A DNA stretch of 64,000 nucleotides from an uncultured Candidatus Saccharibacteria bacterium (lineage in GTDB: Bacteria > Patescibacteriota > Minisyncoccia > Phycocordibacterales > JACOZG01): positions 5,574 through 69,573 of the forward strand of contig CAYHYA010000001.1 of NCBI GenBank assembly GCA_964360815.1, in the 5' to 3' direction. Within the stretch, counting starts at the first letter, position 1. The number at the start of each line of letters is the position of its first letter. This document shows positions 9,749-55,326 of the stretch, one piece after another. A program made the position numbers and the translations under genes. The notes beneath the pieces were generated by a model. It did no database searches. It was not told the origin of the DNA and saw nothing but the letters and a program-made list of their open reading frames with translations.

Positions 9749-10322
9749 TTACAACGACATTAAACCGAAGAAGTTTATTATTCTCGATGGCGATCCTTAC
9801 GAGGTGCTCGAGTCGCACGTCTTTCGAAAACAACAACGCAAGCCGGTTAACGCTACCAAGCTAAAAAATCTAATCACCGGCGGCGTGCGCGAACATTCGT
9901 TCGCCGTAAGTGATAAGGTTGAAGAAGCCGGGCTCAACGAGCGCGAGGTCACTTATCTGTTCAGTAAAAAATGCCTGCCTGCCGGTGGGCAGGAATACTG
10001 GTTCTGCGAGGCGCAAGATAAAGCCAAGCGATTTAAACTGGAACCGGAAAAAGTCGCCGAGCAAATTAAATACCTTCGACCGAATGTTAATGTCCGACTA
10101 CTCACTTTCGGCGAGACCGTCCTTGGAATTAAAATTCCGATCAAGGTCGAGCTCAAGGTTAAAGAAGCGGCGCCGGCCGTGCGCGGCAACACCGTGCAGG
10201 GTGCCACCAAACAAGTGACGCTCGAAACCGGCTTCGTGGTCAACGTTCCAATGTTCGTTAACGAAGGCGACACGATTGTCCTCAACACCGAGACGGGAGA
10301 ATACGTGGAGCGAACGCAGTAA
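9741..10322 (+). CDS. efp: Translation elongation factor P
   Basis: 193 aa. [28 protein letters not shown]...[11 protein letters not shown] matches the N-terminal KOW domain and the three-domain length of EF-P. Confidence 0.8.
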
Positions 10323-16723: not shown

Positions 16724-18169
16724 CTAATTCCCGATTTGGAAAATCCCCGACCCGCCGTAAATCGTTTCGCCGTTGACCACCGTGGAGAGACGGAACCAGT
16801 AAGAACCAGGTGTAATCGAGGCGAAAGCCACATTTTTACTACCAGTGTTCTGATTTAAGGAAGGAGTAAAATTACTAACTAATTGGTTATTGGGCGTCAT
16901 CAGTTCGACTCGAATTAGATTGCCATTGGGGACATTACTTGATGTCCAAGTCACCATTTTGGGCGAATCGGCCTGACGCCAAAGATTGTTCGCCAACGGG
17001 GCTGTCACATTGATCGAGGCGGTGGTTTGAGCTGGCGGCGGATTAGTACACTGGGTCGTATTGAGAGTGCAACTACCACTACAAATTAGAGAACCGAGAG
17101 AGTAACCATAAGAACCGCAAGTCAACGAACCGAAATTGTTGCCATCACATTGTTCTCCACCTTCAATTAAACCGTTACCACAAGTAGTCGCGGGCGGCGG
17201 CGGAACGGAAGTCGGAGCGGCGGTAAATTGGAAAATCCCCGACCCGCCGTAGATGTTTTGCCCGTTAACGACAGTGGAAAGACGGAACCAATAGGCGCCA
17301 GTCGGCAAACTGGAGTTGGTCAAACGACCAGACTCAACGCCGTCGTTTGCGGTAGTGAAATTAGAAAAACCAGTGGCCGGCTGATTGTTGGGGGTCCAGA
17401 GCTCAACCAAAATCGTGTTGCCGTCTGGAATGTTTGTGTCCGACCAATAAATCACCGGTCCGTTATTCACCGTCCATGAGCTGTTAGCCGGCGGCGAAGA
17501 CACATTGATCGTGACGGGACCAGGAGGAATCGGAGGTGAGGGTGGTGAAGTGAAATCGTTGCCGGTACTACCGCTTGCCGGCAGACAACTGTTCGAGAGT
17601 AAGTTGCCGTTCGGGCAAACAGAAGTCGAAGAGGGTGAACTGGCGGTAATGGTGAACCAGCGACTCCAACCGGTGATGGTCTCGCCGTTAACCGTAGTGG
17701 TGATTCGGACGCGATATTGGCCCGGCGCGGGCTGACTGTTCAAAACAAGGTTCTGCCGGCCGTCGTTTATAGTATTGAGAACACTTGTCGCACCGGTAAA
17801 TCTATCGGCCGAATTTAAAACTCGGACATCAACTAATGTTTCTGGCGGTAGGTCTTGACTCCACCACCGTACCGGCAATTCCGATCCGGCTTCATAACTA
17901 CCACCGCCCGGTACCGTGACGGTGATACTGGAGGTGGTGGTGGAATTATTAATGCTGGTTGAAATTCGTTGACCGATTGCTTGTCCCTGTAAAACTAGCA
18001 ACTGTTGTTGAAGTTGGGCGATCAAAGCATTGAGCTGGCTGATCAGTTGTTGCAAATAAGCCGCTGAGATGTTTTGCGTCTGCGCTTCGACTGGAGGTAA
18101 ATTGATAAAACCGATCGAGACGATAATTAATAAAAGACTAACAAAAACAAACCTTGATTTTCTATTCAT
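16724..18169 (-). CDS. Secreted repeat protein with three ~95-aa beta-domain repeats, a Myxococcus-type cysteine-rich repeat (CGNGxxExGEQCDxG) and the CPNGNLLSNSCLP motif
   Basis: Signal peptide MNRKSRFVFVSLLLIIVSIGFINLPPVEAQ. Internal repeats end ...YWFRLSTVVNG(Q/E)(N/T)IYGGSGIFQ. The DNA repeats at 16738..16803 and 17230..17296 were read directly. Confidence 0.55.
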   Translation of the reverse strand: MNRKSRFVFVSLLLIIVSIGFINLPPVEAQTQNISAAYLQQLISQLNALIAQLQQQLLVLQGQAIGQRISTSINNSTTTSSITVTVPGGGSYEAGSELPVRWWSQDLPPETLVDVRVLNSADRFTGATSVLNTINDGRQNLVLNSQPAPGQYRVRITTTVNGETITGWSRWFTITASSPSSTSVCPNGNLLSNSCLPASGSTGNDFTSPPSPPIPPGPVTINVSSPPANSSWTVNNGPVIYWSDTNIPDGNTILVELWTPNNQPATGFSNFTTANDGVESGRLTNSSLPTGAYWFRLSTVVNGQNIYGGSGIFQFTAAPTSVPPPPATTCGNGLIEGGEQCDGNNFGSLTCGSYGYSLGSLICSGSCTLNTTQCTNPPPAQTTASINVTAPLANNLWRQADSPKMVTWTSSNVPNGNLIRVELMTPNNQLVSNFTPSLNQNTGSKNVAFASITPGSYWFRLSTVVNGETIYGGSGIFQIGN

Positions 18170-18182
18170 GGTCCCAATTCTA

Positions 18183-18191
18183 CCCCCCCCC
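18183..18191. repeat. Homopolymeric C9 (G9 on the coding strand) tract 21 nt upstream of the start codon of secreted repeat protein 16724..18169
   Basis: Read directly: tacccccccccctgaatt. Confidence 0.8.
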
Positions 18192-18215
18192 TGAATTAGC
18201 GGGCAAGGTGGAATG

Positions 18216-18762: not shown

Positions 18763-20063
18763 CTTAAGCGTTTGGCCAGTTCATTAATTGGCACTCGTTC
18801 TTGTTTTCCGGTGTCGCGATCGCGCAGGGTCACCGTGTCGTCATCGAGGGTTTGAAAATCAATGGTGAGACAGGCCGGAGTACCAATCTCGTCCTGACGG
18901 CGATAGCGCTTGCCGATGTTGCCATGGTCGTCCCAAGCAAGCGCCGGTTGTTCTCTTTTAAGGGCGGTGTAAACGGTTCGGGCTTTGGCCACCAACTCCG
19001 GCTTATTTTTCAAAAGCGGAAAGACGGCCGCTCGAACCGGCGCGAGGCGCGCCGGCAAACGGAGAAACGTTCGCGGTTCGCCCCCCAACTCATCTTCGGT
19101 ATAGGCGCTGACGAGCACGGCTAAAATGGCGCGGCCGACCCCAAGCGAGGGTTCGATCACGTGCGGCACAATCTTTTCGTTGGTTTCTTGATTTAAAAAA
19201 GAGAGGTCAACACCACTCGAAGTCATGTGGCTTTTCAAGTCGTGATCAGTGCGATAGGCCAAGCCAAATAATTCTTTCTGGCCAAATGGAAACTCAAACT
19301 CGAAATCAACCGTTCGCTTGGAGTAATGGGCGCGATCGCCGTCGGTAATTTCTAGCTCGTGGATTTTTTTTGGATCAATTCCCACCGCCTCAATAAAACG
19401 CCAGATCTCCTTTTGCCACATCTCGAACGCGCCGCGCCAATCTTCCGGTTTAACGAAATATTCCACCTCCATTTGTTCCAGCTCGCGAACTCGAAACAGG
19501 AAATCGCGAGGCGCGATTTCATTTCTAAAGGCCTTGCCGATCTGGGCGATACCGAAAGGTAATTCCGGATGAAACGAGTCGACGATATTTTTAAAATTAG
19601 TAAAAATCCCCTGCGCCGTTTCCGGACGAAGATAGGCCAAAGAAGATTCGTCTCGGGTGGCACCGAGATTCGTTTCCAACATCAAATAGAACTGTCTCGC
19701 TTCACCCAACTTCCCACCACAGTCCGGACATTTTTCCGAGTCGGTTAAATGGTCGGTGCGAAAACGTCGTTGGCACTTTTCGCATTCAGAAAGCCGGTCG
19801 GCAAAACCGCGAGCGTGGCCACTGGCTTGGAGAACCTCCTGCTTAGTGACGATCGCCGAATCAAGACCATACATTTCCTCTCGGTCGGTGACAAACTGCT
19901 TCCACCACAATTGGGTTAGGTTGTTTTTGAGCGAAAGTCCATATGGTCCGTAGTCAAAAAAACCGGCCAGCCCACCGTAGATATCCGCGCTCGGATAGAT
20001 AAACCCGCGCCGTTTACACAGCGAGACTATTTTTTCCAATAATGACTGGTCAGAAGTAATCAT
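18759..20063 (-). CDS. glyQS: Glycyl-tRNA synthetase (alpha2 type)
   Basis: Class II motifs, a zinc-knuckle insertion (CEKCQRRF...CPDCG) and a C-terminal anticodon-binding domain. The length fits dimeric GlyRS. Confidence 0.85.
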   Translation of the reverse strand: MITSDQSLLEKIVSLCKRRGFIYPSADIYGGLAGFFDYGPYGLSLKNNLTQLWWKQFVTDREEMYGLDSAIVTKQEVLQASGHARGFADRLSECEKCQRRFRTDHLTDSEKCPDCGGKLGEARQFYLMLETNLGATRDESSLAYLRPETAQGIFTNFKNIVDSFHPELPFGIAQIGKAFRNEIAPRDFLFRVRELEQMEVEYFVKPEDWRGAFEMWQKEIWRFIEAVGIDPKKIHELEITDGDRAHYSKRTVDFEFEFPFGQKELFGLAYRTDHDLKSHMTSSGVDLSFLNQETNEKIVPHVIEPSLGVGRAILAVLVSAYTEDELGGEPRTFLRLPARLAPVRAAVFPLLKNKPELVAKARTVYTALKREQPALAWDDHGNIGKRYRRQDEIGTPACLTIDFQTLDDDTVTLRDRDTGKQERVPINELAKRLS

Positions 20064-22622: not shown

Positions 22623-25600
22623 TTAGGTCGGCTTGATGATTTCTAAATCGAAAACCGGCGTGGCGGTCGTTTCCGCTGTTTCCTTGTCGGCCCGAACAAT
22701 TTCGATCTTCGAAAGCGTGGCCGTTTGCCAAAGAAATGACTCGGCGGCCTTGATCAGTTTTTCGCCCGAAGTACTCGTCGTCACTCGCAAGCTAGCCAAC
22801 TCGCCAGCCAGTAATCCAGATTTTTTTCGCTGATCCTGAATCTGTCGAACGAGTTCTCGTAAATCGCCCTCGAACTTTAGTTCTGGTGTGAGGGTGGTGT
22901 CTAGCTCAACCGTCGCCGCCAAATCATTTTGCCAAACCACTTCCTTAACATTAACTTCATCTTTGATTAAACTGATTAGCTCGTCGGTCAAATCGGGAGT
23001 GACTCCCCTGACGGCCAATCGAGCCAACGGTTGCCTGATCTTTATTCCGGCTTTAACCCGCGCCTCAAGAGCCAAAGATGCTAACTGACGAACCTGTGCC
23101 ATGTCGTTCAAAAGTTTTTCGTTCGCTGTTTCGCCAACAGTGGTTGTTTTATTTTTTTCGAGATTAGGCCAATCGGTTAGATGGACGCTGGTTGGGTCAG
23201 TGGGGTAACGAAGTTTCTGGTAAATTTGTTCGGCGAGAAACGGCGTCAAGGGAGCGAGTAAACGAGACAGTCGTTTAAGAATCTGCCCGAGCGCGAGCGA
23301 AGCGTGTTGGCGCTCGGCCGGTGAGCCAACGCGGAAACGATCTCGTGACCGCCGCAAATACCACTGCGACAGATCAGCCACAAACTCACGCAAGGCGCGA
23401 GCGGCGGCGGTGATCTCGTAACGTTCGAGTCCCCGCGTGACTTCAACCGTTAAACGATCCAGCAACAAATTAATCCACCGATCGAGCACCGGGGTTGCCG
23501 CCCGATCGGGCGGCTTGACGGTTTCAAGTTCAAGGTCAACTGGATAAAGTTCGTAGAAAGATAAGACGTTGGTGATTGGGTTTATAAATTTCTTAACCAC
23601 CTCAAAAACGGTTTGCTCGTCGAAGTTCTTCGACTCGCCGGGTTGATTGATGCTATACATCCAAAAACGCAAAGCGTCGACACCGTATTTGTCTATCATT
23701 AATTGCGGATCGACCACGTTGCCGACCGACTTAGACATTTTCTTACCGGCCGCGTCCAAAATGTGCCCCAGGCAAACGACGTTTTTGTATGGCGTTCCGC
23801 GGTCAAGAATCACGCCAATCGCGAGCAGGGTGTAAAACCAGCCACGAGTTTGATCAATGGCTTCGGCAATGTAATCGGCCGGATAAAGAATTTTGTCGGG
23901 GGTAGAAATTTGGGAAGCGAGCGGCATGGCGCCGGAATCAAACCAAACGTCCAGCACCTCGGGCACTCGTTTAAGCACTTGGCCACTTTCACTAACCAGT
24001 TCGAGCTCGTCAATAAACGGCCGGTGCAGATCAAGTTCATAGTCGGCGTTGTGCGGGAGTGGGACAAAGGGAATTTCTTTCACCTCGGCATTATTCAACC
24101 ATAAATCTCTCGAGATCTGCCCACTTCTCTCGTCATCGGCTCCTTCTGTCACCATCATGAGGGACTCGTAGGTGATCGCATGACCAACAATCAGGATTAC
24201 TTCGTTGGCGTGTTTTTTCTCTAAATCATAAATAAAACTACCGAAACGCCGCTTGGCCTCTTTTAAACTTTCTCCGTCGGAAGGAATAGCGGTGAAATAA
24301 TCGGGTACACCAACTGACCAATTATTAAATTCCGAGCTTGGTTTATCGCTATAAATTCCGAAATCATATTCCCGCAAACGGTTATCAAAAATAATTTCGG
24401 TCGGATTAAATTTAAGCTCTCTTACTACCAAATCAGCCGTTTCGCGACAGCGCACCAGCGGCGAAGAAAAAATTTTCGTGACACCGAGTTTACGTAATTG
24501 ATCAACACTTGCTACGACCTGCTTTTTCCCTGTCTCGGTTAGGTGGTAAAGAACGTGCTCGTTGTTTGTGAATAAGTCTTTTACCTGATGCTCACCTTCC
24601 CCATGACGCATGACCAAATACCGATTGCCCGAACGTTTCGTGTGGGCTTTAAGTTCGGCGAGTGATCCAATCACCACCCTTTCTTGACCATCAGTCGATT
24701 GCCAAACCGGTAAAGGCGTCCCCCAATAGCGTTCGCGTGAAATCGCCCAATCTTTAACCTCCGTTAACCACTCGCCAAAGCGGCCATTTTTTATATGTTC
24801 CGGCACCCAATTAATTTTTTGATTTTCGGACAACAATTTTTCTTTGAGGGCCGACATCTTGAGGTACCAGGAATCGCGAGCGTAGTAGATCAGCGGGGTT
24901 TTACAACGCCAACAAAAAGGATAGGTGTGGACGATGGACTCGGCTTGGAAAAGTTTCTGCTGGTGCTTTAGTTCGGTGACGATAAGTGGGCTAGCATCAT
25001 TAACCAATTGGCCAGCCCACAATTTGACCTCCGGCTTAAAACGTCCGTCTTCGGCCACCAGATGATATTTCGGCAAACCAACCGCCGTGCCGAGCGCGAA
25101 ATCATCCACACCATACATCACCGCCGTATGGACAATCCCGGTCCCCTCCTCGGCCGACACGAAGTCGGCCGGATAAATTTGGAAGGCGTTGGGCAATTTA
25201 TTTTTTTCGGCGGGCGGCAAATTATCGGCCAGAGACGAGAAAAGAGGGTGGTATTTCTGGCCAACCAATTCTCGACCAGGAACCGTCGAAATAACTCTAA
25301 CCGTTTCGGTGGTAAATAATTTAGAAACAAGACTGGCGAGTAAAATATATTTGCTGTTCGCCGCCTGAACCAGCGCGTATTCCAAATTCGGATTAACCGC
25401 CAAAGCGACGTTGCCGGGCAGAGTCCACGGCGTTGTGGTCCAAGCCAAAAAATAAGTCCCCGGGTCGTTGACCAATTCAAACTTAACGTAAACCGCCGTT
25501 GCCGTGACTTCGGTATAACCCTGGGCCAACTCGTGACTCGAAAGCGCCGTCCCGCAACGCGGACACCACGGAACCACTTTGTAATCTTGATAGAGCAGGC

Positions 25601-26123
25601 CGCGGTCGGCCGCGTGTTTAATGATGCTCCAAACCGACTCGATGTATCTCGGTTCATAGGTGACGTAGGGATGATCTTGGTCAATCCAAAAACCGATTCG
25701 TTCGGTAAATTGCCGCCAGTCGGTTAAATATTTCCAAACGCTGTCGCGACAACGCTGGTTGAAGGCGACGAGACCATACTGTTCAATCTCTTTTTTTGAT
25801 TTCAGGCCAAGCTGTTTTTCGACTTCGAGTTCAACCGGCAAACCGTGCGTGTCCCAACCGGCGCGCCGCGCCACCCGATAACCCTGCATCGTGCGAAAGC
25901 GCGGAATAATATCTTTGAACGCCCGGGCTTCGATGTGGTGGATCCCGGGCCGACCATTGGCCGTCGGCGGCCCTTCATAGAAAACGAAGTCACCCCGCGG
26001 CGCGGATTTTGTCAGTGACTGTTCAAAGATTTTATTCTCCCGCCAAAACTGAAGAATGGCTTCTTCTTTTTTAGCTAAATCTGATGGTTCGTTATTTTTT
26101 GGTTCGATCATTAACGAACGCAT
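22623..26123 (-). CDS. ileS: Isoleucyl-tRNA synthetase carrying an inserted histidine-phosphatase (PGAM-like) domain
   Basis: HIGH region PTANGRPGIHHIEARAFKD and KMSKS. About 200 aa (residues ~497-700, nt ~24026..24635) contain RHGEGEH...LTETG...SSPLVRCRETA...VGHAITY, the histidine-phosphatase signature. Confidence 0.85.
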   Translation of the reverse strand: MRSLMIEPKNNEPSDLAKKEEAILQFWRENKIFEQSLTKSAPRGDFVFYEGPPTANGRPGIHHIEARAFKDIIPRFRTMQGYRVARRAGWDTHGLPVELEVEKQLGLKSKKEIEQYGLVAFNQRCRDSVWKYLTDWRQFTERIGFWIDQDHPYVTYEPRYIESVWSIIKHAADRGLLYQDYKVVPWCPRCGTALSSHELAQGYTEVTATAVYVKFELVNDPGTYFLAWTTTPWTLPGNVALAVNPNLEYALVQAANSKYILLASLVSKLFTTETVRVISTVPGRELVGQKYHPLFSSLADNLPPAEKNKLPNAFQIYPADFVSAEEGTGIVHTAVMYGVDDFALGTAVGLPKYHLVAEDGRFKPEVKLWAGQLVNDASPLIVTELKHQQKLFQAESIVHTYPFCWRCKTPLIYYARDSWYLKMSALKEKLLSENQKINWVPEHIKNGRFGEWLTEVKDWAISRERYWGTPLPVWQSTDGQERVVIGSLAELKAHTKRSGNRYLVMRHGEGEHQVKDLFTNNEHVLYHLTETGKKQVVASVDQLRKLGVTKIFSSPLVRCRETADLVVRELKFNPTEIIFDNRLREYDFGIYSDKPSSEFNNWSVGVPDYFTAIPSDGESLKEAKRRFGSFIYDLEKKHANEVILIVGHAITYESLMMVTEGADDERSGQISRDLWLNNAEVKEIPFVPLPHNADYELDLHRPFIDELELVSESGQVLKRVPEVLDVWFDSGAMPLASQISTPDKILYPADYIAEAIDQTRGWFYTLLAIGVILDRGTPYKNVVCLGHILDAAGKKMSKSVGNVVDPQLMIDKYGVDALRFWMYSINQPGESKNFDEQTVFEVVKKFINPITNVLSFYELYPVDLELETVKPPDRAATPVLDRWINLLLDRLTVEVTRGLERYEITAAARALREFVADLSQWYLRRSRDRFRVGSPAERQHASLALGQILKRLSRLLAPLTPFLAEQIYQKLRYPTDPTSVHLTDWPNLEKNKTTTVGETANEKLLNDMAQVRQLASLALEARVKAGIKIRQPLARLAVRGVTPDLTDELISLIKDEVNVKEVVWQNDLAATVELDTTLTPELKFEGDLRELVRQIQDQRKKSGLLAGELASLRVTTSTSGEKLIKAAESFLWQTATLSKIEIVRADKETAETTATPVFDLEIIKPT

Positions 26124-31270: not shown

Positions 31271-32569
31271 TTACTTCTTCTCCGCGATCGTCTGGCGGCC
31301 ACGACGGACGTCCCAGTCGTCCGGATCGAGATCGGAATAAAGTTTCAATTTAGGAAAGCGGCGAGCGAGAAAGTGGTGCATTCGGTGAGCCAGACGACGG
31401 AGCGTTGGATGAACCATTTTCCCCGAACGTAGTTCGGTCACATAAACCGCCGCCGGTAAGCCGTAAGTGACCCGGCCGGAGATGTTGAAACCCATCGCCA
31501 AATAATACTGCCGGAGTTCGGGCGGTGCTTTCAGTTTGGCCACGACTGATTTTTGATCACGGATTAGCTTTTCGGCTGTCCGCCGCGCTTCCATCGGCAA
31601 CTGGTCGAGATACCACTGATTGAAACCAAAACGAGGCGTCAAAAGCGGCATCCGGCAAACACCGTGGCGATGGCGTTGGAGATCGCGGAAAGAACCGAAA
31701 TCGAGCAGGAAATCAAACGTGCATTGGCCAAGCTCGCTGAAGAAATGGGGTAGATTGGTTTTACCTGGTCGTCTGGTTAAGAGATCGTGATAACGATCAA
31801 GTTCCGAATTTTTGATGTTGGTTTTAGCGTGCCAATCACCGGTGTAATTTTTCTCCAAATAATAGGTGCGGCGATCGCCAAGATACTGCCAATATTTTTC
31901 CTGTTCCGGATAGAGTTTGTGACCAAAACTGGACTGATACTTTTTCTGCAACTCCCCGTGAATCAGCTTCGCCACCGCCTGTACCTCGGGCAAGGGCCAG
32001 TGACGAAGCAGGGCGAGCTTGTCCCAGGCCTGACGAAGGTTGGTGTGCCAAGACAGTTGAGTAGTAATACCAGCTGGCAAAAAACCGCGTAAGCTGTCGA
32101 AGGTTCGGGCCTTGATCGCCCGTTCGTAAACCGGCTCGTCTTCCGCCGGCTGGCGCGGATATTTCAGCCGGAGATGTTGGGCGACAATCTCTTGGTTCTT
32201 GGTATAAAAATCTCGCCATTTTTCCAAAACTGATTTCGAAACGGTCGTTTCAAGCGGATCAATCATGGCTTGTTTGGATAAATCAATGTAGCGCGAGCTG
32301 GTTTCCTGGCCGGAATAAAGCGGCCAATCTTGAAGTGCCTTGGCCGCCAACATGGAAACGCCTTCGACGAAAAGTGTGGTCGAGCCACAGTCGGCGATGG
32401 AAGCGTGGCCGTAACCAACATAATATTTTTCCATGAACTTACCCGAACCGCTCTGGCGCACCTTCGCGACGTGCTGAACCACCGACTCGGCCGAGCGCGA
32501 ATAGAGCGCCTGCATCATCGCCGTGTCCTCCGGATTAAACTCGTCGTAGATGAAAATTTTCATGCTCAT
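31271..32569 (-). CDS. thyX: ThyX-like flavin-dependent thymidylate synthase, apparently a fused tandem duplication with complementary motif retention
   Basis: The N-half aligns to ThyX (MKIFIYDEF..., YSGQETSSRYIDLS corresponds to ASYNELSGRYSKLS) but lacks RHR. The C-half has FDFLLDFGSFRDLQRHRHG (ThyX RHR block) but lacks SxRY. Confidence 0.5.
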   Translation of the reverse strand: MSMKIFIYDEFNPEDTAMMQALYSRSAESVVQHVAKVRQSGSGKFMEKYYVGYGHASIADCGSTTLFVEGVSMLAAKALQDWPLYSGQETSSRYIDLSKQAMIDPLETTVSKSVLEKWRDFYTKNQEIVAQHLRLKYPRQPAEDEPVYERAIKARTFDSLRGFLPAGITTQLSWHTNLRQAWDKLALLRHWPLPEVQAVAKLIHGELQKKYQSSFGHKLYPEQEKYWQYLGDRRTYYLEKNYTGDWHAKTNIKNSELDRYHDLLTRRPGKTNLPHFFSELGQCTFDFLLDFGSFRDLQRHRHGVCRMPLLTPRFGFNQWYLDQLPMEARRTAEKLIRDQKSVVAKLKAPPELRQYYLAMGFNISGRVTYGLPAAVYVTELRSGKMVHPTLRRLAHRMHHFLARRFPKLKLYSDLDPDDWDVRRGRQTIAEKK

Positions 32570-32581
32570 CTCTTATTCTAA

Positions 32582-33601
32582 CTAGATCGAGCCAAAAGAC
32601 AAAGAACGCAAAAGATGCTGGCGTATTTTGTGTCCACGACAATGCTTTAGCACACCTAGATACGAAGTAAGATTGGCGGGAGTGATCTCGTCCCGATCCA
32701 ACCGCCGTAAAATGCGCCTTTTGGTCCGCGTTCGCAAAACTCGATAATGCGGCCGGGCGACGTACCCCAGATAATCAATTCCTTGGTGCAACTTACGAAT
32801 GATAATTTTGTCGGGATGCAAAGAAAGATTTAATTTGTTTTTCAAAAAATCAGAAATTGGCCAAATCAGGTTTTCTAAATAATCACGGCTTTGATGGACG
32901 ATGACAAAATCATCACAGTAACGCAGGTAATATCTGGCCTTAATTTCGTGTTTAATAAATTGATCAAGTTCGTTGAGATAAATGTTGGCAAAAAGCTGAC
33001 TGGTTACATTGCCCAGCGGTAAGCCACAACCAGGGATGATAGCGAAGCTCTCAACGACCGATCGAATTAGAGTGATAACACGGCTATCACCGATTACCTT
33101 TTCAATCAATGACAACAAGATAGCATGATCAATATTATCAAAAAACTTTTGAACATCACATTTTAAGGCGTAGCTTTGTGAATGATAATTACCACTGATC
33201 TTGCGAACAAAGGATTCTAGACGACTTACTCCACGATGCACTCCTTTGTTGAAGCGACAAGAATACGAGTCGTAAATAAAATGCCGATCAAAAAAATGGT
33301 ACAGTCCACGGAAAAGTGCTTGGTGTAGAACTCGGTCGAGCACCGGGGCCTTGTGGATATGACGTATCTTTGGGTCCCGAACGTAAAAAGATTGGTAGGA
33401 GGAGGGATGGTAAGCGTCGGAGACCAGATCAGCATGAAGTTTAAACAAATTATTTTCTAAATCGAACCCGAACTCCAAAACTTTGATTTTTTTGATTTTG
33501 CCGCGCTTGAATTCTCGCCAGGCATTGAGTAAATTAGACAGCGACACAACATGCTCCCACAACGACCAAGTAGACCCCCCCCCAACAGATTTCCTTGCCA
33601 A
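32582..33601 (-). CDS. Diversity-generating retroelement (DGR) reverse transcriptase
   Basis: RT motifs 1-7 with YCDD. Motif 4 reads LGNVTSQ, the DGR-specific [ILV]GxxxSQ that replaces QGxxxSP. 339 aa. The cognate TR and VR lie directly upstream. Confidence 0.8.
   Translation of the reverse strand: MARKSVGGGSTWSLWEHVVSLSNLLNAWREFKRGKIKKIKVLEFGFDLENNLFKLHADLVSDAYHPSSYQSFYVRDPKIRHIHKAPVLDRVLHQALFRGLYHFFDRHFIYDSYSCRFNKGVHRGVSRLESFVRKISGNYHSQSYALKCDVQKFFDNIDHAILLSLIEKVIGDSRVITLIRSVVESFAIIPGCGLPLGNVTSQLFANIYLNELDQFIKHEIKARYYLRYCDDFVIVHQSRDYLENLIWPISDFLKNKLNLSLHPDKIIIRKLHQGIDYLGYVARPHYRVLRTRTKRRILRRLDRDEITPANLTSYLGVLKHCRGHKIRQHLLRSLSFGSI
33575..33583. repeat. Homopolymeric C9 (G9 on the coding strand) inside codons 7-9 (GGG) of the DGR reverse transcriptase
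   Basis: Read directly: tagacccccccccaacag. The minus strand atggcaaggaaatctgttGGGGGGGGGtct encodes MARKSVGGGS. Confidence 0.8.
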
Positions 33602-33939
33602 TTGTTCATCAGTTAGGAGAATTATATAAGCATGTTTACCAAATTGGAAAGAAATTAAGTAAGGGCGACAAACTCGGCGTTTGGTCTAAAATAGAAATAG
33701 TGTGTTTGGAATGTCTTGAATTATCGATCACGGCCAGCTTGTTGCCATTAACATCAAAAACAGAGCCGCTTCGGCGATTAGGGTTAAAAATAGAAGTGAT
33801 GAAAAGGTTGATTAGGTTGTGTTGCGAAATTAAGATCATTGAAGATCGGGTTTATTTATGTTTAACTCAACCGTTACAGGAAATTTCCAAGATGACAGCT
33901 GGCTGGTACAAATACGCCAACCAAAAAGAGCGCCCTTAA
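33595..33939 (+). CDS. Possible Avd-like four-helix-bundle accessory protein (23S-rRNA-IVS family), encoded divergently from the RT
   Basis: ELYKHVYQIGKKLSKGDKLGVWSKIEIVCLECLELS resembles the IVS/Avd helix-1/2 pattern. The orientation is opposite to the TR and RT, which lowers confidence. Confidence 0.3.
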   Translation: MPIVHQLGELYKHVYQIGKKLSKGDKLGVWSKIEIVCLECLELSITASLLPLTSKTEPLRRLGLKIEVMKRLIRLCCEIKIIEDRVYLCLTQPLQEISKMTAGWYKYANQKERP

Positions 33940-33957
33940 GACGCCCCGTTTTGGTAA

Positions 33958-34076
33958 CACTACCTCACGAGTCCGACCATTCGGGTTGGCGTCGTCGCGA
34001 TTCCACCAATTGATCTTGAACTGTCTATCGTTCCAGTTGGCGTAGACGGCCTTGCCATCAGAGTTACGCGAACTCG
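33958..34076 (-). repeat. DGR template repeat (TR), 119 bp, Asn-codon (AAY) rich
   Basis: Aligns without gaps to VR 34352..34470. 13 of 15 differences fall at TR adenines (coding sense on the minus strand). The track's ORF 33874..34176 most likely just spans this non-coding TR. Confidence 0.8.
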
Positions 34077-34339
34077 CGTAGTATCCTTTCCCATCCATTC
34101 CACCGGCAATCTTAAAGTAAAATTGCCTGCGTTGATCCCGTGGTGTGGGGCAAAGTTTGCGGCCTGGTCTTATCAATCCTTACCGCCAGGAAAAGACACG
34201 CAGTGCTATTTAATCTTCTTGGCAAATCGTTATTCCGTGAACGGAACCGATTTATCAGCCGGGTTAAATTTTACAAATAAAAAAATCACCGCGCAACTCA
34301 ACAAAGAGACACGCGGTGATCTAGGATTAAAGGAAGAAG

Positions 34340-35143
34340 TTACGAGTTTAGCACTACCTCACGAGTCCGACCATCCGGGTGTGCGCCGTCGCGAAGCCAC
34401 CAACCGACCTTGAACTGTCTACCGTCCCAGTCGGCGCCGACGGCCCTGCCATCAGAGTAACGCGAACTCGTAATGGTCACGTTAATTAGGTCGAGATGAC
34501 CGCCCTCGATTTTTTGGTGGTGCAATGCTTCCAACAACATCCGCTCGCCAATGGTTGAGTATATAAGGCCACGTTGATCGAGTTGGTCCGGCGAAAGATT
34601 GGAGTATTCTTCACTTGGTTCCACCGCCCCTTCGGTCCAGAGAGCATAAACACTCTCTGGCCGAGGTTGGTTTATGGTAACGGCCTGATCGAGATTTTTC
34701 GTGTAACGAAAACACGGAAAAGCGACTTCGTTAACGCGGTAAATTTGATCGAGCGACAAGTTGGGGTCAACGACGAGTAGCGTTGGTTGCCGAAACCTAC
34801 CTGTCGGCAGGGTCGGCACGGTCAGTTTGTTCAAATCTATTCGTCGTTGGTGCTGATCAAGATAATATTGTTCCCACCACTCGAGATCGTTACCAATATT
34901 GACAGCATCGTCAGTCGCACCGATTAAGAAATTACCGACCCTTCTCTGCCATTCTCTTTTTTCCTTGACCAGTTTTTCGGCCTGATCAAAATCTATCGTT
35001 ATCGGCATCGCGTGAACCAAAGCACTGCAAATTTCCCTCGTTTGACCGAACGTCATCGGTTTCTTAACCACCGCTGGAACAGTACCGCTTTTACTCATGG
35101 TCAGTTTCCTTTCACTTAATTCAAAGACCCCGGCTAAAGGCAC
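34340..35143 (-). CDS. DGR target protein (variable protein); the C-terminal ~40 aa are encoded by the VR
   Basis: C-terminus ...SSRYSDGRAVGADWDGRQFKVGWWLRDGAHPDGRTREVVLNS compares with the TR-encoded SSRNSDGKAVYANWNDRQFKINWWNRDDANPNGRTREVV. No signal peptide was detected. Confidence 0.7.
   Translation of the reverse strand: MPLAGVFELSERKLTMSKSGTVPAVVKKPMTFGQTREICSALVHAMPITIDFDQAEKLVKEKREWQRRVGNFLIGATDDAVNIGNDLEWWEQYYLDQHQRRIDLNKLTVPTLPTGRFRQPTLLVVDPNLSLDQIYRVNEVAFPCFRYTKNLDQAVTINQPRPESVYALWTEGAVEPSEEYSNLSPDQLDQRGLIYSTIGERMLLEALHHQKIEGGHLDLINVTITSSRYSDGRAVGADWDGRQFKVGWWLRDGAHPDGRTREVVLNS
34352..34470 (-). repeat. DGR variable repeat (VR) at the 3' end of the target gene
   Basis: See the TR entry. 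The final ~21 nt (ggtcggactcgtgaggtagtg) are identical to the TR, including its adenines, which is consistent with an IMH-like unmutated end. Confidence 0.8.
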
Positions 35144-39579: not shown

Positions 39580-39661
39580 ACTCTCAAGTAAAGCAGACGA
39601 AAAGAAAAACCACCAGCAACCTCTACGGTTACTGGTGGGTGTGGTGTGCGCTTGTATTCCG

Positions 39662-40309
39662 TTAATTTAGTGTTTTGATGATTTTGTTCCAGAAATCGCG
39701 TCCACGTCTGAACCAATCTCGTCGGCGGAGAACAGCAACACTCGCTCCCAACAGAGAGAGGGTTCCTGGTTCCGGAATCGGCGTGCCGCGGAGAACAAAA
39801 GAATCAAATCCCATTCGATCGCCAGCGGAGGAAAAATCTCCGATTAGACGAAAAGCGAAATTAGGATTATCGCTGGCTTCCGGCGGCAGGGCCAGAGATT
39901 CTAAAATCCAGTCGCTTTCGTTCATGTTCGTGTAGAAAGCAAGTGGTTTCCAATCTTTCGAATCGGGGGTCCACTCAACTCGCATCACGTCATCAATCTC
40001 GAGCGCCCCCCTAACCTGTTCGGCAAACTCCAAAATCAAACCATGAAAGCCGACCGTGGAAATTTCAAGAAGCAGCGTGCCGTCCGGCCCACCACTTATT
40101 CCACTAAAGTCGGCGCCCCAGTCTCCCTCGAAGGCCGCCGCATCAGACGAGATAAGTTGCCATCGCCCATTAGCACCGGTCCATCGATCAAATGCTTGAT
40201 TGGGGCCGCTGATTTCGAATCCATCCTCGAATAGAATATCGGCCGAAACCCCCCCCACCATCAACAGAGGTAAGAGTAAAACCAGTCGCGACTTTCTTCT
40301 TCCACCCAT
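39662..40309 (-). CDS. Secreted protein with C-terminal PEP-CTERM sorting signal
   Basis: Signal peptide MGGRRKSRLVLLLPLLMVGGVSA. C-terminus IPEPGTLSLLGASVAVLRRRDWFRRGR is PEP followed by a TM helix and an Arg-rich tail. Confidence 0.55.
   Translation of the reverse strand: MGGRRKSRLVLLLPLLMVGGVSADILFEDGFEISGPNQAFDRWTGANGRWQLISSDAAAFEGDWGADFSGISGGPDGTLLLEISTVGFHGLILEFAEQVRGALEIDDVMRVEWTPDSKDWKPLAFYTNMNESDWILESLALPPEASDNPNFAFRLIGDFSSAGDRMGFDSFVLRGTPIPEPGTLSLLGASVAVLRRRDWFRRGRDFWNKIIKTLN
40249..40256. repeat. Homopolymeric C8 (G8 on the coding strand) in the signal-peptide codons of the PEP-CTERM protein
   Basis: Read directly: gaaaccccccccacca. The minus strand gtgGGGGGGGtt encodes VGGV. Confidence 0.8.
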
Positions 40310-40425
40310 AAACTGTCTCCTTTTCTCAAAAACAAAACACTAAAAACCCAAGACACGCGCCCGGGTCTTCTTCAAGTTCAAGGATCAACTTAATCCGGTG
40401 AGGATACTAACACAACTAGATTAAA

Positions 40426-54756: not shown

Positions 54757-55326
54757 TTACGGGAGAAACTGAAGCAGGAACCATTGTCTCGACGTGTCAG
54801 AGGAAAAAACCGAGATAACCTGATAGGTTAATGTATCATCAAAAAACGTGTCCACCATGTTGGTTGGGATATTATCTATGTTTTCTACTGTACCCATCAG
54901 AGCAACCTTGTAATCTCGACCCTGCGAATCTGTTTTGTACCAGTAACCCAAATCCGGATTACTGGATGGACCAGAGGGGTCAGCGGGTCTGGGGTCTAGA
55001 TATTGAGATATCGCCGCTAGTTTATTGGGGTCATGGTAATCGTTGTTCGTGGTGGGGCAATCCCAACAATCAAGTCCGGCTGACGTTATTTCGGTTCCGC
55101 CAATAAAAATATCATCTGGATAACGACCATAATCTGTCTTATACAACTCCAACGCGTTTCTTAATTGAATTAAGTCCTGCACACGTTTTGAGTCGCGGGC
55201 TTTGGCCCGGGCTTGGGCGAGGGAAGCAAACACAATGCTCGACAAAAGGGAGATAATCGCGATGACGACTAAAATTTCGATCAGCGTGAACCCCCCCCTC
55301 TTTTCTGTTCGTTCTGTGTTCTTCAT
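54757..55326 (-). CDS. pilA: Type IV major pilin (PilA/GspG-like)
   Basis: RGGFTLIEILVVIAIISLLSSIVFASLAQARAKARDSKRVQDL matches the GspG/PilA consensus. The leader contains a G8 tract. Confidence 0.7.
   Translation of the reverse strand: MKNTERTEKRGGFTLIEILVVIAIISLLSSIVFASLAQARAKARDSKRVQDLIQLRNALELYKTDYGRYPDDIFIGGTEITSAGLDCWDCPTTNNDYHDPNKLAAISQYLDPRPADPSGPSSNPDLGYWYKTDSQGRDYKVALMGTVENIDNIPTNMVDTFFDDTLTYQVISVFSSDTSRQWFLLQFLP
55291..55298. repeat. Homopolymeric C8 (G8 on the coding strand) in the prepilin leader of the major pilin gene, immediately before the G/F cleavage site
   Basis: Read directly: gtgaacccccccctctt. The minus strand agGGGGGGGGttc encodes RGGF. Confidence 0.8.

Follow-up and report, generated by a model that had tools for sequence, protein, structure and literature searches.

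A G8 tract in the signal-peptide region of a PEP-CTERM-type protein gene from a groundwater Paceibacterota bacterium: a candidate slipped-strand switch

In a stretch of 64,000 nucleotides (hereafter the window) from a Paceibacterota (CPR) bacterium of Hainich groundwater, a run of eight guanines lies in the signal-peptide region of a gene for a small, apparently exported protein. Does this run serve as a slippage site that switches a surface protein on and off, or is it an incidental product of the codons used at this point? Homopolymer-driven phase variation is textbook knowledge for host-adapted pathogens. CPR/Patescibacteria are believed to live in attachment to other cells, relying on pili and surface proteins. 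In full-text literature searches, we found no report of SSR or homopolymer phase variation in Patescibacteria/CPR.

The window contains the housekeeping genes for aminoacyl-tRNA synthetases, RecA, FtsK, EF-P, NusG and L11, and it further has a DGR and a cluster for type IV pili. The nearest relative in the genome collection, H43-bin015_1 (a "Patescibacteria group bacterium" MAG from well H43), shows 65% identity in the DHH gene that neighbours the gene under study. Beside DHH this relative has a toxin-antitoxin pair and L5, and the PEP-CTERM gene is missing, indicating that the latter is an accessory gene. No G run of at least 7 nt was found in 12 kb of the H43-bin015_1 locus, which thus offers no orthologous tract for comparison.

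The gene and protein that carry the tract

The tract, its gene and the immediate surroundings comprise the following features:

40249..40256, minus strand: G8 homopolymer, candidate slipped-strand switch, in codons 18-21, GTG GGG GGG GTT (V18-G19-G20-V21)
39662..40309, minus strand: 215-aa ORF with ATG start, encoding a signal peptide, a choice-of-anchor-J/CBM-like domain of about 150 aa and a PEP-CTERM-type tail (from HMM matches and family alignment)
40241..40309, minus strand: signal-peptide coding region, residues 1-23, MGGRRKSRLVLLLPLLMVGGVSA (cleavage site placed by inspection and family alignment)
39719..39781, minus strand: PEP-CTERM-type sorting motif, residues 177-197, PIPEPGTLSLLGASVAVLRRR (from a Pfam match below the cut-off and the invariant P-E-P)
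40317..40322, minus strand: Shine-Dalgarno sequence AAGGAG, 7 nt upstream of the ATG (read from the sequence)
40342..40370, minus strand: terminator-like hairpin between the upstream nitroreductase gene and the PEP-CTERM gene
39610..39638, minus strand: terminator-like hairpin of 12 pairs with a T-run, just downstream of the ORF

The G8 tract reported in an earlier note on this DNA was confirmed, with the proviso that the guanines stand on the minus strand: positions 40249-40256 read CCCCCCCC on the plus strand (C8) and GGGGGGGG on the minus strand, which is the coding strand. The tract begins 53 nt past the first base of the ATG, and a homopolymer of at least 7-8 nt, as is expected of a contingency locus, is therefore present inside the ORF. 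The terminator-like hairpins that flank the ORF on both sides suggest that the gene is monocistronic.

The N-terminus of the protein (MGGRRKSRLVLLLPLLMVGGVSA/DILFEDGFE, the slash marking the putative cleavage point) has, by inspection, a basic n-region, a hydrophobic core and a VSA/D cleavage-type site, and in an alignment with 19 homologues the conserved mature domain starts exactly where the putative Sec signal peptide ends. The earlier placement of the tract within a signal peptide, in the MVGGVSA region, was thus correct.

An exhaustive HMMER search of 1.84 billion representatives identified 331 homologues at E <= 1e-3; of these, 116 pass E <= 1e-10. The protein had seemed to be an orphan in a word-indexed search, which matched only the protein itself; the HMMER result overturned this status. 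Many homologues are 190-210 aa long, and in some cases the domain forms the N-terminus of a very large protein. At least one homologue cluster contains a Candidatus Paceibacterota MAG protein. One homologue, P0135/P0283, has GGGGGGG inserted behind its signal peptide. The best homologue shares 43% identity with the window protein, and the search found no close orthologue in which the tract could be compared.

We aligned the window protein with 19 small homologues (20 members in all, 31-39% identity to the window protein). The signal peptides are variable across this alignment, and the domain of about 150 aa is conserved, with W50, W120, W134 and D169 invariant. At the C-terminus P179-E180-P181 is likewise invariant in all 20 sequences, followed by a hydrophobic stretch and then an Arg cluster. 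PF07589 was matched by 13 of the 20 members and TIGR02595 by 11, choice-of-anchor J by seven (each at E <= 0.01), Reelin_subrepeat-B by eight and CBM_4_9 by four. Gly-Gly is not conserved at the corresponding position of the signal peptides of the homologues, indicating that the amino acids do not force the G8 tract.

The designation "PEP-CTERM protein" used in the earlier note therefore holds at the level of the family, whose members share the signal peptide, the domain and the invariant P-E-P tail. The window protein itself has the P-E-P, the hydrophobic helix and the Arg-rich cluster near its C-terminus (residues 177-197, PIPEPGTLSLLGASVAVLRRR) but falls below both curated cut-offs, with 19.7 bits against 20.7 for PF07589 and 14.4 bits against 16 for the NCBIfam model TIGR02595. 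The choice-of-anchor J model (NF038128) gave 13.8 bits, also below its cut-off of 30. A further 18 residues follow the RRR cluster; the homologues end 0-12 residues past the Arg cluster. No exosortase was found among approximately 50 ORFs of the 64-kb window that were scanned with Pfam or NCBIfam, and no other PEP-CTERM tail is present there, that of ORF 39662..40309 being the sole one. A single-sequence AlphaFold model of the 215-aa protein had a mean pLDDT of 41 and was unusable. Judged from its sequence and its family, the ORF is predicted to encode a small exported protein whose domain is carbohydrate-binding-like and whose tail is of PEP-CTERM type.

Long G tracts in the window and in related pilin genes

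The G8 tract had been counted as the third long homopolymer of the window. This count needed correction, as the window has four G/C tracts of at least 8 nt, all of them G on the minus strand. The three sister tracts are:

18183..18191, minus strand: G9 in the 18-nt spacer of a promoter-like site, TTGCCC-18-TAGAAT (consensus match only), upstream of ORF 16724..18169 for a secreted 481-aa repeat protein
33575..33583, minus strand: G9 at the 5' end of the DGR reverse-transcriptase ORF 32582..33601
55291..55298, minus strand: G8 in the prepilin leader, at the cleavage site, of the type IV pilin ORF 54757..55326 (N_methyl), where AGG GGG GGG TTC encodes R-G-G/F

Homologues of the secreted 481-aa repeat protein carry PF18998.

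The lengths of G/C runs in the window are distributed bimodally, with 861 runs of 3 nt, 199 of 4, 38 of 5, two of 6, none of 7, two of 8 and two of 9. A/T runs decay smoothly over the longer classes (102 of 6 nt, 37 of 7, two of 8 and one of 9). In Markov simulations, the four runs of at least 8 nt compare with expectations of 0.2 (order 2) and 0.7 (order 3), an over-representation of the kind that is looked for in contingency loci, and the six runs of at least 6 nt, two of which are 6-7 nt long, with expectations of 6.6 and 12.4, respectively. Order-5 nulls were given less weight, as the tracts themselves contaminate the model. A synonymous-codon shuffle of 54 ORFs returned 0.6 expected coding runs of at least 8 nt, against three observed (P = 0.02, a modest significance that rests partly on tracts other than that at 40249-40256), and 10.8 expected coding runs of at least 6 nt, against five observed.

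Codon usage in the window makes the tract a rare way of writing its peptide: the probability of G8 given V-G-G-V is 0.006. GGG accounts for 14.6% of Gly codons and AGG, the rarest Arg codon, for 3.9% of Arg codons. Only four of the 94 Gly-Gly pairs in the window are written GGG-GGG, and all four lie inside long tracts. Each of the four long tracts, moreover, has G on the sense strand and lies between -22 and +53 nt of a start codon. For about 54 genes in 64 kb, the probability that all four would be 5'-proximal and sense-oriented is roughly 1e-5, an estimate for which the interval was chosen post hoc. Thus, short G runs are avoided and long ones are present at gene starts, which is the pattern of contingency loci.

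We additionally compared the pilin tract with that of relatives. The pilin homologues come from Patescibacteria, Vogelbacteria and Paceibacterota, and seven of 34 have an (R/L)GG/F leader. DNA was compared for three lineages with the RGG/F leader, represented by P0033 (a Vogelbacteria MAG, L008), P0011 (L009) and P0017 (L010-L012), and in all three RGG is written AGG GGG GGG (G8), as in the window. With the window gene and a further gene whose tract is G9, described below, AGG GGG GGG is found in five divergent pilin genes, the others sharing 46-50% amino acid identity with the window pilin where measured. Under window codon usage, the probability of AGG GGG GGG given RGG is 8e-4. Downstream of the tract, codons agree pairwise in 49% of cases over the 35 conserved-residue columns, and among 21 other conserved columns with 4-6-fold degenerate residues only two keep one codon in all five genes. 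As the tract codons are identical and those of other conserved columns rarely so, the pilin tract itself is conserved, and not only the peptide that it encodes.

The fifth of these genes lies on a contig from Hainich well H52 (L014, coverage 2.5x). Its tract is G9 and the frame is broken, the leader reading MNLRARGGVHSN and then a stop; the gene call for this pilin (P0048) starts 28 residues inside the full-length prepilin. With one G taken out (G8), the frame runs through a complete prepilin, MNLRARGG/FTLIELLVVIAII and onwards. The G9 may be a natural OFF allele, or a homopolymer sequencing error due to low coverage. P0127, an almost identical pilin in another MAG, has F13V as its sole difference; the underlying T-to-G change extends the run to G9 in frame, and this G9 too may be either real or a homopolymer-edge error. 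The pilin homologue P0040, which has no N_methyl match, was considered as an OFF allele and rejected, as it has only a mis-called start at a locus without the tract.

Further tracts were identified in the Vogelbacteria relative L008, where a 66-aa membrane protein has G8 at +67 and the methyltransferase of a HinfI-like R-M system has G7 at +172. Both runs are 5'-proximal, and in both the sense strand carries the G.

Consequences of slippage and explanations of the tract

We modelled the products of different tract lengths at 40249-40256. G8 yields the protein of 215 aa, G7 and G10 yield products of 70-71 aa, and G6 and G9 products of 39-40 aa. A change of -1 (G7, 70 aa) or +1 (G9, 40 aa) thus switches a full-length to a truncated product, as is expected at a contingency locus. 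After a frameshift, the sole restart for the remaining ORF would be a TTG, which lies 125 aa from the end and gives no signal peptide. The early stops and the want of a proper restart indicate that a slip of +1 or -1 would be a clean OFF. A gain or loss of three nucleotides would lengthen or shorten the signal peptide by one Gly.

No length variation was seen at 40249-40256 in four of four assemblies, comprising the window and L001, L002 and L003, which are ENA and Logan assemblies of the 0.1-um fraction of Hainich well H51 at 2-4x coverage. When contigs were sought by exact protein match to the nitroreductase and DHH genes on either side, all that came back had G8 and stemmed from well H51. 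No record matched the 125-aa product that an OFF allele would give, and a scan of metagenome contigs with a DNA pattern in which 5-14 bases could separate the flanks yielded the known G8 contig and no other. As these assemblies are replicate samplings of one well at 2-4x coverage and probably represent a single population, the uniform G8 neither confirms nor refutes switching.

The rate at which such a tract would switch depends on repair: a G8 tract under active mismatch repair switches much more slowly. Weak or absent MutS/MutL is common at contingency loci without being obligatory. Neither mutS nor mutL was found among the annotated ORFs of the 64-kb window. Mismatch-repair status differs between CPR lineages (PMC8406219).

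The earlier note had proposed a candidate slippage site controlling expression of the protein. In favour of this proposal are the truncation on +1 or -1, the excess of long tracts, the 5' placement and, for the sister pilin tract, the codon-level conservation and the one frameshifted G9 allele; against it stands the uniform length at 40249-40256 in four G8 assemblies that are probably not independent of each other. We regard the slippage-switch reading as plausible and indirectly supported, and we infer both a useful switching rate at this tract and its upkeep by selection. That G8 is a slipped-strand mispairing switch of a surface protein, and one of several contingency loci in the genome, has in our estimate an even chance of being right.

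Under such a mechanism, the G8 run at codons 18-21 would now and then gain or lose one G during replication. The in-frame G8, which is the state in all assemblies seen, would be ON; G7 or G9 would shift the frame inside the signal peptide and lead to a dead-end peptide of 70 or 40 aa, corresponding to OFF, and a later slip would put the frame back. Partner contingency loci would act at the pilin, at the promoter of the secreted repeat protein and at the DGR reverse transcriptase. Mixed surface phenotypes would in this way persist within clonal populations of a small bacterium that is probably surface-attached.

It might instead be that V-G-G-V simply happens to be written GTG GGG GGG GTT, the run then being a mild indel hotspot that is unselected and has no regulatory role. 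The signal peptide is unconstrained in the family, such that any codons may drift there, no variant was seen among the four G8 assemblies, and the shuffle still expects 0.6 coding tracts per window, with a probability of 0.11 for two or more. An incidental run sits poorly, however, with the strong depletion of G/C runs of 6-7 nt in DNA where runs of 8-9 nt are present, with the 5'-proximal position and sense-strand G of all four long tracts in surface- or diversity-related genes, and with the codon conservation of the sister pilin tract, which uses the rarest Arg codon and a minor Gly codon. We consider this explanation rather unlikely. The orientation and placement of the tracts could also reflect a role in mRNA, as a Shine-Dalgarno-like (anti-SD-pairing) pause site or a structure in the leader-coding region that slows translation during emergence of the prepilin leader or signal peptide and aids membrane targeting. 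The sense strand carries G and not C in seven of seven tracts when those of L008 are included, three tracts lie at codons 7-21, two of them in exported or membrane proteins, and the nucleotide-level conservation of AGGGGGGGG in pilin leaders fits an RNA function equally well. Five or six guanines would suffice for a pause, yet runs of 6-7 nt are nearly absent and the tracts are 8-9 nt long; one tract lies in a promoter spacer and another in a cytoplasmic reverse transcriptase; a G9 frameshift allele exists for the pilin; and a further explanation of the preference for sense-strand G is that Gly-Gly is tolerated better than Pro-Pro. An mRNA-level element is thus improbable.

Homopolymers of at least 8 nt can provoke RNA-polymerase slippage in some bacteria, and slippage of the polymerase, or programmed frameshifting by the ribosome, would yield two products from one DNA allele. 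The efficient tracts known for this are A/T runs of at least 9 nt, however, the alternative frames here encode peptides of 39-71 aa with no recognisable domain, and it is the in-frame product that is the conserved family protein, making such dual production very improbable. As for a sequencing or assembly artefact, such as poly-G from two-colour chemistry or a mis-called tract length, contig coverage is low (2-4x), and the RGGF to RGGV difference beside the pilin tract in P0127 resembles a homopolymer-edge error. The same G8 is present in the window and in three other assemblies, though, with the family-typical ORF of 215 aa intact, and it lies internal to the contigs and not at read or contig ends, such that we give an artefact hardly any credence.

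Comparison with known systems

Seen against known phase-variable loci, the G8 tract is probably a known mechanism in a new lineage, and not a new mechanism. As a single tract it has a modest practical value, flagging a candidate phase-variable surface protein and warning annotators that a frameshift at this point may be real. What merits a read-level test is the wider pattern: 64 kb hold four tracts, the G8 of the pilin leader is conserved in the clade and has a frameshifted G9 allele, and another tract lies at the start of the DGR reverse transcriptase.

More tentatively, the Paceibacterota may possess a multi-gene "phasome" of G8-G9 tracts that takes in the pilin (with its clade-conserved tract), PEP-CTERM-type and secreted repeat proteins, R-M methyltransferases and the DGR reverse transcriptase, an idea that we hold to be possible without leaning towards it. 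If true, surface variation in these ultra-small episymbionts would be layered, a strategy not described in the literature searched. Stochastic switching of the pilin, of sorted surface proteins and of the DGR would explain heterogeneity of attachment and of phage or host interaction in clonal populations, and apparent "pseudogenes" and frameshifts in CPR MAGs would become biologically meaningful. The read-level test would be a simple one, answerable from existing metagenomes.

To our knowledge, PEP-CTERM systems have not classically been described in CPR/Paceibacterota. The window protein differs from classical PEP-CTERM proteins in its scores below the cut-offs, its 18 extra residues and its CPR host, and in that the 64-kb window holds no exosortase. 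It resembles the PEP-CTERM/exosortase-sorted proteins (TIGR02595/PF07589) that have a choice-of-anchor J domain in its signal peptide and its small domain of beta-sandwich type, and the P-E-P, hydrophobic helix and Arg cluster are common to it and its 19 homologues.

Homopolymers in promoter spacers mediate phase variation in Bordetella fim (poly-C) and in Neisseria porA and opc (poly-G). The likeness to these systems belongs to the G9 at 18183-18191, whose promoter is a consensus match only; the G8 at 40249-40256 differs from them in being intragenic.

In Listeria monocytogenes, the poly-A tract of inlA exemplifies 5'-proximal homopolymers as gene-inactivation switches, and poly-A/T tracts are over-represented (Orsi et al. 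2010, PMC2831843). The G8 tract is alike in its 5' place in a surface-protein gene and in the very short truncated product that follows a shift. It differs in that A/T runs are unremarkable in the window, where only the G tracts stand out.

The closest parallels are found among the poly-G/C contingency loci of Campylobacter jejuni, with counterparts in Helicobacter, Neisseria and Haemophilus. Switching rates of 1e-4 to 1.6e-3 per division apply to poly-G tracts of C. jejuni without mismatch repair, and the lengths discussed range from G8 to G11 (PMC8355987). The present host differs in being a free-living or episymbiotic Paceibacterota of groundwater, and not an animal pathogen, and no tract-length polymorphism was seen at 40249-40256 among the four assemblies. 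The window is nevertheless like these loci in having 5'-proximal G8-G9 tracts on the sense strand, several of them in one genome, with a gap in length between the short runs and the long tracts. It further resembles them in the targets, which are surface structures and, in the relative L008, an R-M methyltransferase, and in the early truncation that follows a change of +1 or -1.

The PEP-CTERM-tailed protein and its homologues

The PEP-CTERM-type tail of the protein that carries the G8 tract in its signal peptide is followed by 18 extra residues, all of which are missing from its aligned homologues (19 of 19).

39662-39718, minus strand: extension DWFRRGRDFWNKIIKTLN, 18 residues following the PEP-CTERM-type tail

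Beyond this genome, one or more Paceibacterota MAGs also encode PEP-CTERM-type proteins; no exosortase gene was seen within the 64-kb window. We additionally noted, in the homologue P0135/P0283, an insertion (GGDPDSGGGGGGGINLRH) with seven glycines in succession directly after the signal peptide, which may be encoded by a long poly-G tract.

A retroelement with a G9 tract at its reverse transcriptase

The region at window positions 32582-35143 (minus strand) is a complete diversity-generating retroelement (DGR).

32582..33601, minus strand: reverse transcriptase (RT) ORF, RVT_1 match (7e-21)
33955-34076, minus strand: template repeat (TR)
34349-34470, minus strand: variable repeat (VR), forming the 3' end of the target ORF
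34340..35143, minus strand: target ORF, 267 aa, without a Pfam match

The two repeats, each of 122 nt, share 86% identity, and almost all differences between them fall at TR adenines. The G9 tract at 33575-33583 (minus strand) has the TR on one side and the RT core on the other; at this length the RT frame starts at TTG 33601 and encodes 339 aa. G10 brings an ATG farther upstream (33609) into the frame, giving 342 aa, and at G8 or G11 the sole remaining start is a downstream TTG, giving 326 aa. Since these lengths yield different RT starts, slippage could, speculatively, modulate RT translation, and with it the activity of the DGR.

Directly downstream of the RT is a ThyX-like ORF of 432 aa (31271-32569, minus strand), with a Thy1 domain confined to residues 18-210 and a C-terminal half without a Pfam match. 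Elsewhere in the window, a class I aminoacyl-tRNA synthetase of 1166 aa (IleRS/ValRS-like; 22623-26123, minus strand) contains an inserted histidine-phosphatase (His_Phos_1) domain at residues 503-670.

G tracts in a promoter-like spacer and in pilin leaders

A further G9 tract lies upstream of a 481-aa secreted repeat protein.

18177-18206, minus strand: promoter-like site TTGCCC/TAGAAT, its 18-nt spacer filled by the G9 tract

The ATG of this protein lies 7 nt after the end of the -10 hexamer, a spacing that points to a leaderless mRNA or one nearly so. With G8 the spacer would be the optimal 17 nt; assembly L005 likewise has G9 here.

The G8 tract of the pilin leader was found in the same codons in divergent Paceibacterota pilins.

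Prepilin-leader tract AGG GGG GGG TTC (R-G-G|F): window 55291-55298; L008 (Vogelbacteria relative) 10029-10036; contigs L009 93-100, L010 2112-2119 and, as G9, L014 74-82

In L014, from Hainich well H52, the tract is G9 and the pilin is frameshifted. The pilin P0127 of another MAG has the leader RGGV, a T bordering the tract being replaced by G.

We noted two further tracts in L008. The first is a G8 (19781-19788) at +67 (AAG CGG GGG GGG ATG) in the gene of a 66-aa membrane protein. The second, a G7 on the sense strand (18097-18103), lies at position +172 of the N6_N4 methyltransferase gene in a HinfI-like R-M system, possibly a candidate phasevarion.
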